Source of the DNA: Candidatus Zambryskiibacteriota bacterium
Lineage (GTDB): Bacteria; Patescibacteriota; Minisyncoccia; Phycocordibacterales; DATDWN01
Reading direction: 5' to 3'
DNA: 64,000 nucleotides
Assembly: GCA_023267045.1 (NCBI GenBank)
Contig: JAHFOB010000002.1
Location: 2,032 to 66,031, forward strand
Numbering within the stretch: position 1 is the first letter of the stretch; each line of letters starts with the position of its first letter. This document shows positions 3,437-61,648 of the stretch, piece after piece. The notes under the pieces were generated by a model. That model did no database searches, had not been told where the DNA came from, and worked only from the letters and a program-made list of their open reading frames with translations. Made by a program: the position numbers and the translations under genes.

Positions 3437-3506
3437 GCTATACTTAGAGCCATAGCTGTTCCTATATCCAACCAAACTGTCAGCAATGTGAATAAAGAAT
3501 ACTCTC

Positions 3507-3836
3507 ATGTCCACCTCACCAGAAACAATTGAATTTATTTTAGAAAAACTAAATGATTATGATAGATTTTCTACCAGATCAATGTTTGGTGAGTATGCTC
3601 TGTACGCAGATGGAAAAGTTGTCGGCCTTGTTTGCGATGACCTTTTGTATGTAAAAATACTTCCCGAGAGTCACGAGCTTGAAAGTTTGTGTGAGAAAGG
3701 GGAACCGTATCCAAAAGCAAAACTATGGTATGTAGTTGAAGAAGATCAGCTGTCTAAAATAGAGAATTTGCCGGATATTCTATTTGCCGTCGCAGACTCT
3801 CTTCCAGCAAAGAAAAAGAAAACGAAGAAGAAATAA
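3507..3836 (+). CDS. TfoX N-terminal domain protein
   Basis: RSMFGEYALYADGKVVGLVCDDLLYVK matches the TfoX_N core (MFGGYGLY.DGKMFALI.DD.LYLK). Confidence 0.6.
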   Translation: MSTSPETIEFILEKLNDYDRFSTRSMFGEYALYADGKVVGLVCDDLLYVKILPESHELESLCEKGEPYPKAKLWYVVEEDQLSKIENLPDILFAVADSLPAKKKKTKKK

Positions 3837-3855
3837 CTTTGGTATAATCATTTTT

Positions 3856-4638
3856 ATGAAAATTCTTTCTCTGAATACCTGGGGAGCGAGAGCAGGGCAT
3901 GCTGATTTTTTGAATTTTATAAAAAGGCAGAGTAATTCGATTGACGTTTTTTGCTTTCAAGAGATTTGGCATGTAGATTCAGAAAATTTTGAGCATGCAA
4001 AACTTCAAATTGAAGATGCCGTAGCTGGTGGGGTTGTATTAAAAAATATGATGAAAGATTTATTTCCTCAAATTAGCAAAGTCCTTACTGATTACAAAGG
4101 ATTTTTCCGTCCCCACTATGGAACTCACTACGGACTAGCGATATTTGTCAAAAAAGATTTAGATTTAATAGAAGAAGGAGATATTTTTGTATTTAAGGAT
4201 CGAGATTTTGTTCCGACAGGCGATGTAGGTAATCACGCAAGAAATGTTCAATACGCGTGTATACAAACAGAAAAAGGTTTACAAACAATAGTTAATTTCC
4301 ATGGATTATGGAATGGCAAGGGTAAAACAGATACGGAAGATAGACTACTCCAGTCAGATAATATTATTAAATTTCTCAAAACCATAAAAAATCCCTTCAT
4401 TTTGGTTGGGGATTTTAATTTACTGCCAGATACAGAAAGTTTGAAAAAATTTGAAGAGTTTGGTTTGAGAAATCTCATAAAAGAAAATAACATAACTTCA
4501 ACACGAACAAGTTTATATAAAAAAGAACACAAATTTGCTGACTACGTTTTTGTCAGCAAAGGGATTGAAGTAAAAGATTTTAAAATTTTACCAGATGAGA
4601 TTTCGGATCATAATCCAATATTTTTAGAGATAAAATAA
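3856..4638 (+). CDS. Endonuclease/exonuclease/phosphatase (EEP) family protein
   Basis: LSLNTWG...FCFQEIW...VGDFNLLPDTES...SDHNPIFLEI are DNase I-like EEP motifs. The in-frame ATG at 3856 is preferred over the track start 3784, which overlaps the upstream gene. Extended -10 TGGTATAAT lies at 3839-3847. Confidence 0.75.
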   Translation: MKILSLNTWGARAGHADFLNFIKRQSNSIDVFCFQEIWHVDSENFEHAKLQIEDAVAGGVVLKNMMKDLFPQISKVLTDYKGFFRPHYGTHYGLAIFVKKDLDLIEEGDIFVFKDRDFVPTGDVGNHARNVQYACIQTEKGLQTIVNFHGLWNGKGKTDTEDRLLQSDNIIKFLKTIKNPFILVGDFNLLPDTESLKKFEEFGLRNLIKENNITSTRTSLYKKEHKFADYVFVSKGIEVKDFKILPDEISDHNPIFLEIK

Positions 4639-56740: not shown

Positions 56741-57748
56741 TTGGTAAATGAGACATACATGCGAACTAAAAAGAAGGATGTAGCTGTTATCCAAAAAGAT
56801 CCGCTGAATTCGCTAAATCCAGATCGTCTGGATGAGCTTTTTGATCAGTTTATGACGGAAAAGAAATATGTGACACTACTTCGCCCTGCTACCTTGATTG
56901 GGTATAGAGCATCGTATGACCTTTTTAGAAAACTCTCGTATGTCACAATTGATTCACTCACCACAAAATCGCTGACTAATTTTTTCAAGGAGATGCAAAC
57001 CAGAACTAGAATTGTTGGTAAGGGGGTTGAGAAAATTGGTGTTAAGGATTCAACCATAGCAACATATGCTATGAAGCTTAATGTATTTTTTGAGTGGTTA
57101 GTTCAAGAAAAACATATCATTGAAAATCCAATCAAAAAATTGCCAAAATACAGACCAGTCTATGATGACAAAAGAGCCTTACGCAAAGGAGATATCGAAT
57201 ATATCAGAACAGCAATTGAAAACCACTCCACTACTTTGCTACAAAAGAAGAGAGATCAAACGATGCTCGCTGTACTTCTGTTTTGTGGGATAAGAAGAGG
57301 AGAACTACTTGGCTTGAAAGTGACTGATATCGACCTGGAAAAAAGGCAACTGATAATTAGAGGCGAAACATCGAAATCAAAGCGTACGAAAATTTTACCG
57401 ATTACCAATAAAATATTAGCAATGGCTTTACAAGATTATTTGAATGAGAGAAAAAATTACAAAACTCCGCAATTATTTGTTTCGTTAAATACTGACAAAG
57501 GACTAAGCTACGAAGGATTCAAACATTGGATTGACAGGTTGGAACTATTGTCTGGTGTAAAATTTCATTCGCATCGATTTCGTCATACCTTTGCTACAAA
57601 TCTTGAAGCTAACGATGTTGGCATTATAAAGATTTCAAAACTTATGGGTCATAAAGATACAAGAATGACTCAAGTGTATCTTCGCTCGATGGGATCAGAG
57701 GACTTAGGACCAGAGATGAGTACCCTGACATTTGACAACTTGATATAA
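56741..57748 (+). CDS. tyrosine-type site-specific recombinase/integrase (int2), reading toward the right junction
   Basis: HSHRFRHTFATNLEANDVGIIKISKLMGHKDTRMTQVYL catalytic motif. Confidence 0.85.
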   Translation: MVNETYMRTKKKDVAVIQKDPLNSLNPDRLDELFDQFMTEKKYVTLLRPATLIGYRASYDLFRKLSYVTIDSLTTKSLTNFFKEMQTRTRIVGKGVEKIGVKDSTIATYAMKLNVFFEWLVQEKHIIENPIKKLPKYRPVYDDKRALRKGDIEYIRTAIENHSTTLLQKKRDQTMLAVLLFCGIRRGELLGLKVTDIDLEKRQLIIRGETSKSKRTKILPITNKILAMALQDYLNERKNYKTPQLFVSLNTDKGLSYEGFKHWIDRLELLSGVKFHSHRFRHTFATNLEANDVGIIKISKLMGHKDTRMTQVYLRSMGSEDLGPEMSTLTFDNLI

Positions 57749-58010: not shown

Positions 58011-58373
58011 GCGTCAGTGGAAGACAGAGTCATGTTTTTATACCAATAAAAACGGACGAGTCAGGGTCGTGGAAATTTTGTTTTGACGAAAATAAAATTA
58101 TTCCTGACCACAAAATGTATTAGGAAAATAGTGGCTGACCCCATTTTCCCTGACCCCATTTTCCCCATCTTCTAAATAAATCATTGCTATGGTATTGTTT
58201 TGTTACAACTAAATAAGTTAAAGTAGCCTAAACCAAGTAATTGGCATGGTGAAAAGCCCAGTAACGAATAAAAAACCCATCATGCGGGCTTGTCGTTACT
58301 GGCCATATCGGGAAACCGGTATGGGGAGCTTCGGCTCCCACCCTGTGGTGGGCTTTTTGTATAAATAAAAAAT

Positions 58374-59979: not shown

Positions 59980-60145
59980 GGAAAAATGGTGTCTAACCCC
60001 ATTTTCCATTTTCCCCAAGAAAAACTACCGATGCTACTTACAAACAAGTATCAGTCACTAGAAGACGCTAAGGATGTTTTAGGAGAAGCAAAAGGTATAA
60101 GCTCTCTATTTTTCAACTTCCAAAAGTATCTATACCAAAAATAGA

Positions 60146-60598
60146 TTAATATCTTTTATAACTTTTACTCGTATCAATGTGAGTATTTTTGAAAGCAATA
60201 AAGTAAAATATCTTTTGACTATCAACGGTAAAAAAGAACAGTCTACCTTTTTCGCTGTAACCACCACTTAAATAAGCTTCTTCTACTTGCACACCATCGT
60301 CTAGTCCTGTATACAAATCAGAATAATCACCATCATTTACAACAGGTTTTATTGTTACTCCCAACTTAGAAATATCGCTCTTAACAAAAACTTTAGTGCC
60401 TATTTGTTTTATCAGTTTCAGACTATTTTTTCTTTGTTTATCATCAAAGCTTCCTTCCAACTGACACATCTTGTCATTGTAATTTAAAAAAGAAATTAGA
60501 TATGGCTGTGTCTCCGGTTCTATTTCTTCAGACAATTCTGCGAGTGAGTTTGGTAAAACGCCTTTCTCCTCATTTATTCCGGGTTCGGGAACATCCAT
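60146..60598 (-). CDS. candidate toxin partner of the Panacea-domain antitoxin (uncharacterised, 150 aa)
   Basis: Lies immediately downstream (11-nt gap) of the Panacea gene on the same strand; acidic N-terminus, no recognisable toxin family. Confidence 0.4.
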   Translation of the reverse strand: MDVPEPGINEEKGVLPNSLAELSEEIEPETQPYLISFLNYNDKMCQLEGSFDDKQRKNSLKLIKQIGTKVFVKSDISKLGVTIKPVVNDGDYSDLYTGLDDGVQVEEAYLSGGYSEKGRLFFFTVDSQKIFYFIAFKNTHIDTSKSYKRY

Positions 60599-60609
60599 AA
60601 TAGTAGTTT

Positions 60610-61095
60610 TTATTTTGCAGTAGCTTCCTCCATCTTTCTAGTGTAAAAATCCATCATAGACTTACGAGTAATTTCTTGTTCAGAATTTTCACTCGCTTCT
60701 AATCCAGCTCTAGCGTCTTGCCATGGTGCTTCAGAGTGAGTAAGCATTTCTAAATATGAAGAATCATATTTACCATAAAGCTTCCAGACTTGTTCCAACA
60801 GATTTTTATCAATATCTGATATTTTGTTAATTAATTCTATATCGGGCTCCTTTTTAATTGGGTTAAATCCGAACTCCTTATATTTAGCATAAACACTTTT
60901 TATTGCTGGACCATGAACCCATGCTTCAATTTTTTCTTTGAAAAGAGGTTTTTTGTTTACTACAAGAGACCATGCTTGTGCATAATAAACAAGTTTCTGA
61001 ATCTTCTTATTGGTTATAACCTTTCCAGATAGATTAGCCTTCTGAATGAAAAATTCAGCTATAGAACTAGCTGAAACTGTCTTTGCGACTTTCAT
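60610..61095 (-). CDS. Panacea domain (DUF4065/SocA-like) antitoxin
   Basis: GKVITNKKIQKLVYYAQAWSLVVNKKPLFKEKIEAWVHGPAIKSVYAKYKEFG matches DUF4065. The start is probably at the internal MKVAKTVSASSIAEF (61095) rather than 61155. Confidence 0.6.
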   Translation of the reverse strand: MKVAKTVSASSIAEFFIQKANLSGKVITNKKIQKLVYYAQAWSLVVNKKPLFKEKIEAWVHGPAIKSVYAKYKEFGFNPIKKEPDIELINKISDIDKNLLEQVWKLYGKYDSSYLEMLTHSEAPWQDARAGLEASENSEQEITRKSMMDFYTRKMEEATAK

Positions 61096-61405
61096 ATAGT
61101 AAGTATACAACACTATTGCGAATTTTTTCGCAAGTTTTCCACTATCCAAGAACATACAAGCATATTTTATAAAACAGACCCGGGTCCATAAGGAAGGGCA
61201 ACCCCCTACTGTCTATGCCGAAATTTTTGCGAAATTAGCTTTATATTCAATAATTATTTTGCTATTGTCCAATTTAGTAAGTTATAAGTCTCTAAAACCC
61301 AGCTTTCGACTTGGTTCCAACTTTTACTTACCAACTTCACCTTTGTAATATCTTTTCCTCTTTCACTGTATAATACCTATACAATTACAAATTAAATTAA
61401 ATAAT

Positions 61406-61648
61406 ATGATGTATAACTACGGTTATTATAGTCCTTTTAGTGCATTGTTCGGTATTCTAGGCTGGGTTATTTTTGCACTTATTATAGTTTGGATTTTGAA
61501 ACTTGGACGGAGAGATCATTGGATGGATAAAATGGGGAAGCATGGCTTTATGAAAGATAGCGCTATGGAGATTTTGAGAGAAAAATATGCAAAAGGTGAA
61601 ATATCAAAGGAGGAGTTTGAAGCAAAGAAAAAAGATTTGAGTCAATAG
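61406..61648 (+). CDS. SHOCT domain membrane protein
   Basis: N-terminal TM; C-terminal LREKYAKGEISKEEFEAKKKDL is SHOCT. Confidence 0.65.
   Translation: MMYNYGYYSPFSALFGILGWVIFALIIVWILKLGRRDHWMDKMGKHGFMKDSAMEILREKYAKGEISKEEFEAKKKDLSQ

Follow-up and report, generated by a model that had tools for sequence, protein, structure and literature searches.

Stand-alone Panacea domains neutralise toxins directly, one of them by contacting the unstructured N-terminus of its toxin, and Panacea has been proposed to serve mainly as a sensor (Ernits et al. 2023, PMC10440598). According to the available part of Dataset S1 of Kurata et al. 2022 (PMC8832971), HHpred relates the Panacea partners of the clusters T14, T28, T58, T60 and T76 to HigB-2, YoeB/ParE or RelE, and cluster T59 carries a ParE_toxin domain; T14 (HHpred 99.7%) includes Saccharibacteria, and many of its Panacea antitoxins (PanA) carry a helix-turn-helix (HTH) domain. 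In the same source, the 'mRNase' class of Panacea-associated toxins (PanT) includes the large cluster T1, in which the PanT of Mycoplasma agalactiae is located; a T1 toxin of Clostridium cadaveris with the label 'mRNase' was toxic in Escherichia coli (Table S1, PMC8832971), and the HHpred row behind the T1 label was not found among the accessible entries of Dataset S1. The accessions listed for these clusters include WP_013022263.1 (M. agalactiae, T1), WP_074844970.1 (C. cadaveris, T1) and WP_015641600.1 (T14). Panacea with a RelE-fold partner is an established class, and the gene pair described here, panA and panT of Candidatus Zambryskiibacteriota bacterium, is not a new type of toxin since RelE-fold Panacea partners were already contained in that study (PMC8832971). 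The pair is encoded on a 64,000-nucleotide (nt) stretch (contig JAHFOB010000002.1, positions 2,032 to 66,031 of the forward strand; referred to as the window, with all coordinates counted from its first letter). It represents a conserved Panacea-partner module, and its toxin candidate belongs, according to structure prediction, to the RelE/ParE fold superfamily, in which it has diverged so far that the curated sequence models miss it; the novelty of PanT thus concerns the sequence-family level only. On balance, the locus is probably a PanA-PanT module of type II whose toxin is a RelE-like mRNA endonuclease; toxicity, neutralisation and RNase activity are inferred.

The window contains a single copy each of panA and panT, which are co-directional on the minus strand and, as the first-pass annotation had pointed out, separated by 11 nt (the panA stop ends at 60610, the panT ATG is located at 60598). 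Judged by its sequence, the upstream gene panA (60610..61095, minus strand) encodes a Panacea (DUF4065) antitoxin family protein of 161 amino acids (aa) in stand-alone form: It matched the Pfam family PF13274 (SocA_Panacea) over the complete profile (positions 1-113 of 113; E=1.1e-20) with 75.1 bits, i.e. above the gathering score of 25.7, as well as phrog_1281 (E=2.8e-44), and the stretches previously read as its Panacea signature (ITNKKIQKLVYYAQAWSL, WVHGPAI and YAKYKEFG) are all present. The NCBIfam SocA_antitoxin model was matched over most of the protein length (E=4.9e-18) with 65.4 bits, under its equivalog cut-off of 190 bits; neither an N-terminal HTH nor any other accessory domain was detected in the domain library scans. 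An upstream in-frame first ATG in the ORF (open reading frame) listing would result in a longer form of 181 aa (60610..61155, minus strand), and public gene calls exist for both lengths; the 161-aa form starting with the ATG at 61095 fits the length of most homologues upstream of related toxins (156-168 aa).

The downstream gene panT (60146..60598, minus strand) encodes a putative toxin of 150 aa, for which searches of Pfam, NCBIfam, PADLOC, PHROGs and the PDB sequences gave nothing significant; among the curated models of the RelE/ParE clan, ParE_toxin PF05016, YoeB, YafQ, HigB and Gp49 PF05973 all failed to recognise it. Its family was exposed only by an exhaustive HMMER search, whereas word-indexed searches missed most of the members (four relatives with 60-100% identity were obtained with the single PanT sequence, 23 with the profile version). 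The comparison of an alignment of four close relatives with 1.84 billion cluster representatives (50% identity) revealed at least 160 clusters at E<=1e-3 (69 at E<=1e-10), nearly all of them with a protein length of 135-175 aa. Typical members have approximately 140-150 aa and originate mostly from metagenome-assembled genomes (MAGs) of the Patescibacteria, also termed Candidate Phyla Radiation (CPR); they carry no Pfam annotation and are always named 'hypothetical protein' in public sources. No relative of PanT was present in the phage and plasmid record collections searched by tblastn. On this sequence evidence, PanT is a member of a real family without a curated model; in this respect the earlier suggestion of a candidate new toxin family holds, but it needs to be narrowed in view of the RelE-like predicted fold and the already published pairing of Panacea with RelE-like toxins.

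In every genomic context examined, panT was found to be the conserved partner of Panacea, as the first-pass annotation had presumed. A Panacea gene was located directly upstream of the close homologues in 4 of 4 cases. One genome per GTDB species was scanned with a peptide pattern derived from the toxin (8-sequence alignment subset); since the pattern was taken from the toxin, the resulting sample is unbiased towards Panacea. All 18 loci obtained in this way had a Panacea gene directly upstream, and the Panacea ORF of 17 loci matched the window PanA at E=1e-50 to 1e-73 (phmmer), its end being positioned between 35 nt inside and 15 nt before the toxin ORF (the latter called from the first possible start codon). 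The loci belong mostly to Patescibacteria (Saccharibacteria, Kaiserbacteria, Vogelbacteria, Zambryskibacteria, Doudnabacteria, Kazan, Paceibacterota and Parcubacteria), in addition to MAGs of Melioribacteraceae, Ignavibacteria and Gammaproteobacteria; at the eighteenth locus (L020) the pair becomes apparent when UGA is translated as sense. The distant clades P0157 (Rhabdochlamydiaceae), P0151 and P0062 likewise possess an overlapping upstream PF13274 gene (3 of 3). In addition, a protein of Candidatus Anoxychlamydiales (P0104, NGX32563.1) represents a single-ORF fusion of 306 aa, in which Panacea (residues 34-128) is followed by the PanT domain; it is present on two contigs (L006 5001..5921 and L007 2102..3022), and its linker retains both I-P motifs of the toxin tail (see below). 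Across the loci, the pairwise identities of PanA and PanT were correlated (r=0.74; none of 5000 permutations in a Mantel test reached this value), and from this co-variation it follows that the genes are inherited as a unit. The flanking genes differ between the loci, and the module therefore consists of two genes. We assign PanA and PanT to a conserved Panacea-partner module with high confidence.

Two further observations concern these loci. The mean pairwise identity was 57% for PanA and 47% for PanT, i.e. the antitoxin is the more conserved protein; for type II pairs, the opposite would be expected. At L020 (approximately 3480..4400 of the GTDB contig CAZWBM010000004.1, labelled Candidatus Peribacteria), in-frame TGA codons occur at conserved positions of both the Panacea and the toxin gene (e.g. 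VH*PAI where the relatives show VHGPAI), which implies that UGA is read as sense (code 25 or 4); such a code is unexpected for the taxonomic label of this contig.

The AlphaFold2 (AF2) model of PanT calculated on an alignment of 137 family members reached a predicted local distance difference test (pLDDT) score of 88.4 and a predicted template modelling (pTM) score of 0.76, whereas the model based on a 4-sequence alignment was unusable (pLDDT 49). The RelE-like core (residues 32-146; 60161..60505, minus strand), delimited by the predicted secondary structure and the conserved residues, starts with a strand at 34-36 (LIS) and an insert containing Y40 and C45, continues with helices 53-69 and 73-79, strand 82-85 and helix 90-96, and ends with the strands 106-109, 119-125 and 130-137, followed by a H140-x-D-T-x-K tail. 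The model thereby displays the N-terminal strand, the two helices and the three- to four-stranded antiparallel sheet of the RelE/ParE fold. In the Foldseek comparison with the PDB, the top match was RelE of Pyrococcus horikoshii (1wmi_A; E=8.8e-3, probability 1.00, target-normalised TM-score 0.70), followed by three YoeB chains of Staphylococcus aureus (7v6w; probability 0.98-0.99) and YafQ of Vibrio cholerae (9lew; probability 0.96); HigB2, the RelE proteins of E. coli and Mycobacterium tuberculosis, HP0892 and YoeB/ParE 6n90 ranked lower, and the top 25 were mostly toxins of RelE, YoeB, HigB2 or ParE type. At the sequence level, Gp49/HigB-like PF05973 was the only Pfam family matched by more than one member (4 of 137, all sub-threshold; best E=0.0066), and the 137-member profile obtained only a chance match to uL22 (E=0.53) among the PDB sequences. 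A RelE fold of PanT is therefore likely, being well supported by structure prediction and unconfirmed by sequence statistics. The previous statement that the protein has no recognisable toxin fold is wrong in view of the predicted structure, the best PDB matches of which are RelE, YoeB, YafQ, HigB2 and YoeB/ParE; the protein is, according to the AF2 model, RelE/ParE-like rather than unclassified.

The residue conservation, computed on the 137-member alignment, was highest for Y92 (100%), H140 (99%), R119 (97%), Y40 and C45 (96% each) and E107 and F121 (95% each). Three of these residues are putatively catalytic: E107 in the first strand of the C-terminal sheet (codon 60278..60280, minus strand), R119 at the start of the next strand (60242..60244, minus strand) and H140 just past the last strand (60179..60181, minus strand). 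In the hhalign register, which is non-significant, E107 is placed at RelE K52, R119 at RelE R61 and YoeB R65, and H140 at RelE E82 (R81-R83 region); as the YoeB alignment stopped four residues short, the correspondence of H140 to YoeB H83 was deduced from their shared position past the last strand. We take these positions of RelE and YoeB to be the catalytic ones, and the near-invariance of E107, R119 and H140 at such locations suggests that PanT is most likely an endoribonuclease. The C-terminal block GGYSEKGRLFFFTVDSQKIFYFIAFKN, highlighted in the first-pass annotation as conserved-looking, is present and indeed conserved throughout the family, R119 and F121 being part of it; its GGYSEK stretch is an insertion specific to the close relatives of the window protein and absent from most of the family. 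The N-terminal tail outside the core (residues 1-31; 60506..60598, minus strand; pLDDT 71-79) is acidic in the window protein (isoelectric point (pI) 4.05, net charge -8.5), whereas residues 32-150 are mildly basic (pI 8.7; family median of the core charge +5); the acidic N-terminal half reported before does not constitute a family trait, since among the 137 members 79 have an acidic and 34 a basic tail. At positions 3-4 and 15-16 the tail carries semi-conserved I-P motifs, and further on E29; P4 is conserved to 83%, P16 to 74% and E29 to 76%.

In comparison with the RelE/ParE-like PanATs of Kurata et al. (compared by description), the locus has in common the antitoxin-first two-gene arrangement, the short gap or overlap and a toxin labelled 'hypothetical'; the window toxin differs by its N-terminal tail of approximately 30 residues and the insert after the first strand, and in contrast to T14 it is not recognised by curated hidden Markov models and is accompanied by a PanA without an extra domain. 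The PanT family is centred on Patescibacteria MAGs, while no Parcubacteria, Vogelbacteria or Kazan entries were found in the accessible part of the Kurata table (PMC8832971). With YoeB, RelE and YafQ (PDB 2a6q, 1wmi, 7v6w and 9lew) PanT shares the predicted fold and order of elements, a small basic core, and an arrangement of conserved residues in which acidic or basic ones lie in the strand that opens the C-terminal sheet, an Arg begins the following strand and a His or Arg stands past the last one. Unlike these toxins, PanT has an N-terminus longer by approximately 50 residues, no significant sequence or profile similarity to them, no established counterpart for its Y40, C45 and Y92, and a globular Panacea protein as partner instead of YefM, RelB or DinJ with their wrapping C-terminal peptide. 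Relatives of PanT are weakly matched by the curated model NCBIfam NF046006 ('MAG6450 family protein'), which is named for a gene of M. agalactiae, the species whose PanT belongs to cluster T1; in the literature this gene is described only as conserved hypothetical and non-essential. As to the model: It was matched by 18 of the 137 members, all of them under the 40-bit cut-off (best E=2.8e-6), for P0151 across the whole conserved core (profile positions 2-99 of 103; 23.1 bits, E=8e-5); the window PanT gave no match at E<=1. The guess that the members with a basic tail match MAG6450 was rejected, the matching ones being P0151 and P0137. Like the CapRel fused phage sensors, which demonstrate that a fusion of this kind can function as a switch triggered by phage (PMC10440598), the Anoxychlamydiales protein P0104 joins antitoxin and toxin domain in one chain; it differs from them in that its toxin domain is RelE-like instead of toxSAS and follows the antitoxin domain, and the window encodes two separate proteins.

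According to the proposed mechanism, PanA would neutralise PanT by direct protein-protein binding (type II), whereas freed PanT would cleave mRNA, probably on the ribosome and with E107, R119 and H140 as endoribonuclease residues, and thereby arrest translation. PanA may grip the N-terminal tail of PanT via the I-P motifs: Residues 1-31 are a speculative candidate for a docking or latch segment, because a stand-alone Panacea contacts an unstructured toxin N-terminus in one case of Ernits et al. 2023 and the tail is retained in the P0104 fusion.

Several points weigh against this mechanism. The Foldseek E-values are modest (approximately 1e-2), and the query-normalised TM-score is only 0.44, a low value that results from the approximately 50 extra N-terminal residues of PanT. 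The hhalign comparison of the 137-sequence alignment with YoeB (4 PDB sequences) and RelE (105 sequences) gave probabilities of <1%, and in consequence the residue equivalences rest on a non-significant alignment plus the order of secondary structures; the RelE template profile was too narrow, because the search for its members yielded close RelE relatives only, all sharing 68% or more identity with E. coli RelE. The non-coding region 61096..61405 (minus strand; no ORF of at least 40 aa on either strand), which is shared with a divergent SHOCT-domain gene, presumably contains the panAT promoter, but neither promoter nor operator was found there, the scan for sigma-70-like sites yielding 7 sites versus 6.2 +/- 2.5 in shuffled sequence. 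Furthermore, three of the four expressible 'mRNase' partners of Panacea were non-toxic in E. coli (those of E. coli MOD1, Salmonella phage Emek and Listeria phage B025), and the toxic one (C. cadaveris, T1) was not neutralised by its cognate PanA (Table S1, PMC8832971). The fold itself permits another target, as RelE-fold proteins can instead poison DNA gyrase in the manner of ParE, and Ernits et al. stressed that one fold serves either RNA cleavage or gyrase inhibition (PMC10440598); ParE_toxin-domain partners of Panacea were indeed found by Kurata et al. (PMC8832971). Foldseek cannot separate RelE from ParE, its matches including YoeB/ParE 6n90 and the ParE-like PfiT 9w3a. That PanT is a ParE-like gyrase poison, or another non-RNA binder of the same fold neutralised by PanA, is nevertheless regarded as quite unlikely, given that the best structural matches are the RNases RelE, YoeB and YafQ. 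ParE toxins are not known to possess a conserved set of polar catalytic residues, unlike PanT with its Glu, Arg, His and Tyr that are 95-100% invariant at the RNase positions.

The non-toxic 'mRNase' partners would also be in agreement with a PanT that is a conserved Panacea partner but normally causes no growth arrest, i.e. a RelE-fold protein that is inactive or has a regulatory role, or else an effector that responds only to a specific cue and would for that reason appear non-toxic in a standard assay. The proposal of Panacea as mainly a sensor (PMC10440598) points in this direction, as does the natural Panacea-PanT fusion, from which the toxin could not be released simply by turnover of the antitoxin. 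The near-invariant putative active site in at least 137 diverse members argues instead for a selected enzymatic activity, and toxin-antitoxin modules typically show the tight antitoxin-first operon seen here, with genes that overlap or nearly abut; a partner without arresting function is therefore considered unlikely, and with the gyrase target also taken into account we lean slightly towards PanT being an RNase, rather than ParE-like or inactive. A toxin fold or family without relationship to the toxins already known, as favoured in the first-pass annotation, would explain why the window PanT is unmatched in the curated libraries and PDB sequences, why the 137-member profile finds no PDB sequence and why hhalign is non-significant for RelE and YoeB. 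It is very unlikely in view of the confident AF2 model with its RelE-like topology and RelE-superfamily toxins as nearest PDB neighbours, and of the weak matches of several members to Gp49/HigB-like Pfam models and of 18 members to the NCBIfam MAG6450 family. The Panacea domain being named after SocA, and PanA matching the NCBIfam SocA model, a SocAB-like type VI system might be conceived, in which PanA acts not by inhibitory binding but as an adaptor through which a protease such as ClpXP constantly degrades PanT. This appears highly improbable: The 65.4 bits of PanA fall far short of the 190-bit cut-off and its partner has a predicted RelE fold instead of being of SocB type, a covalent PanA-PanT fusion fits poorly with an adaptor delivering for destruction, and validated PanA proteins form stable toxin complexes and act as type II antitoxins (PMC8832971). 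It is doubtful as well whether the PanT family represents a distinct CPR-centred, Panacea-controlled RelE-fold lineage that acts as a phage-triggered abortive-infection switch and not as a plain addiction module; the I-P tail would then be the handle for the stand-alone Panacea, which would function as sensor, the Anoxychlamydiales fusion would be a CapRel-like end point, and a role in defence islands would account for the repeated occurrence next to type I restriction genes. The type II module with a RelE-like mRNA endonuclease remains the reading that we prefer.

With respect to the genomic setting, panT ends 2 nt from a convergent ORF of 52 aa (59986..60144, plus strand), which carries an EcoEI_R_C domain and represents the remaining C-terminal part of a type I restriction R subunit. 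At the same spot, the relative L004 (929..2668, minus strand) holds a far longer hsdR ORF (579 aa or more, as it runs off the contig) that is convergent with the toxin gene, contains ResIII, helicase and EcoEI_R_C domains and has a C-terminus near-identical to the remnant; by this comparison, the window has lost most of hsdR. The pair of P0151 adjoins hsdM, and in unrelated members of the family hsdM or hsdR is the immediate neighbour of the Panacea-toxin pair (L029 2797..4554, L030 1362..3119 and L004 929..2668); these type I restriction-modification neighbours hint at a defence-island location. The region 58.2-61.7 kb has a GC content of 0.30-0.36 compared with 0.38-0.44 in the flanks, and a tyrosine recombinase/integrase gene (56741..57748, plus strand; Pfam Phage_integrase E=5.5e-29) is located approximately 2.4 kb from panAT. 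The low-GC stretch, the integrase and the hsdR remnant together suggest a mobile or defence-island context.

Further elements were observed in this neighbourhood. The divergent gene beyond the upstream region of panAT codes for a small SHOCT-domain membrane protein (61406..61648, plus strand) and is also a neighbour of the pair in the closest relatives L001 and L002. Approximately 480 nt downstream of the integrase gene, a LOOT RNA (Rfam RF03000; 58225..58339, plus strand) was detected as a full-length match with 80.7 bits versus a gathering score of 46.4; this motif is unmentioned in the main text of the 2017 paper reporting many new candidate RNA motifs. Direct repeats of 25 nt (AAAATAGTGGCTGACCCCATTTTCC) are located at 58125..58149, 58140..58164 and 59983..60007 (the distal copy being 88% identical) and flank a 1.85-kb block that comprises the LOOT RNA, two ORFs of 95 and 76 aa, an S49/NfeD-like peptidase and a DUF6804 gene. 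The breakpoint of the hsdR remnant lies at the right-hand repeat copy, and this coincidence points to a site-specific insertion or deletion.

The current picture of toxin-antitoxin biology is unchanged by this locus, since the combination of Panacea with RelE/ParE-like toxins is already documented. If confirmed, the Panacea network would gain a sizeable, unnamed and Patescibacteria-centred family that comprises 160 or more clusters (50% identity). With its conserved toxin tail, its strict one-to-one pairing with co-evolving antitoxins and its natural fusion, the PanT family offers useful natural material on how the globular Panacea domain acts towards a RelE-type toxin, be it as its neutraliser or as its sensor.

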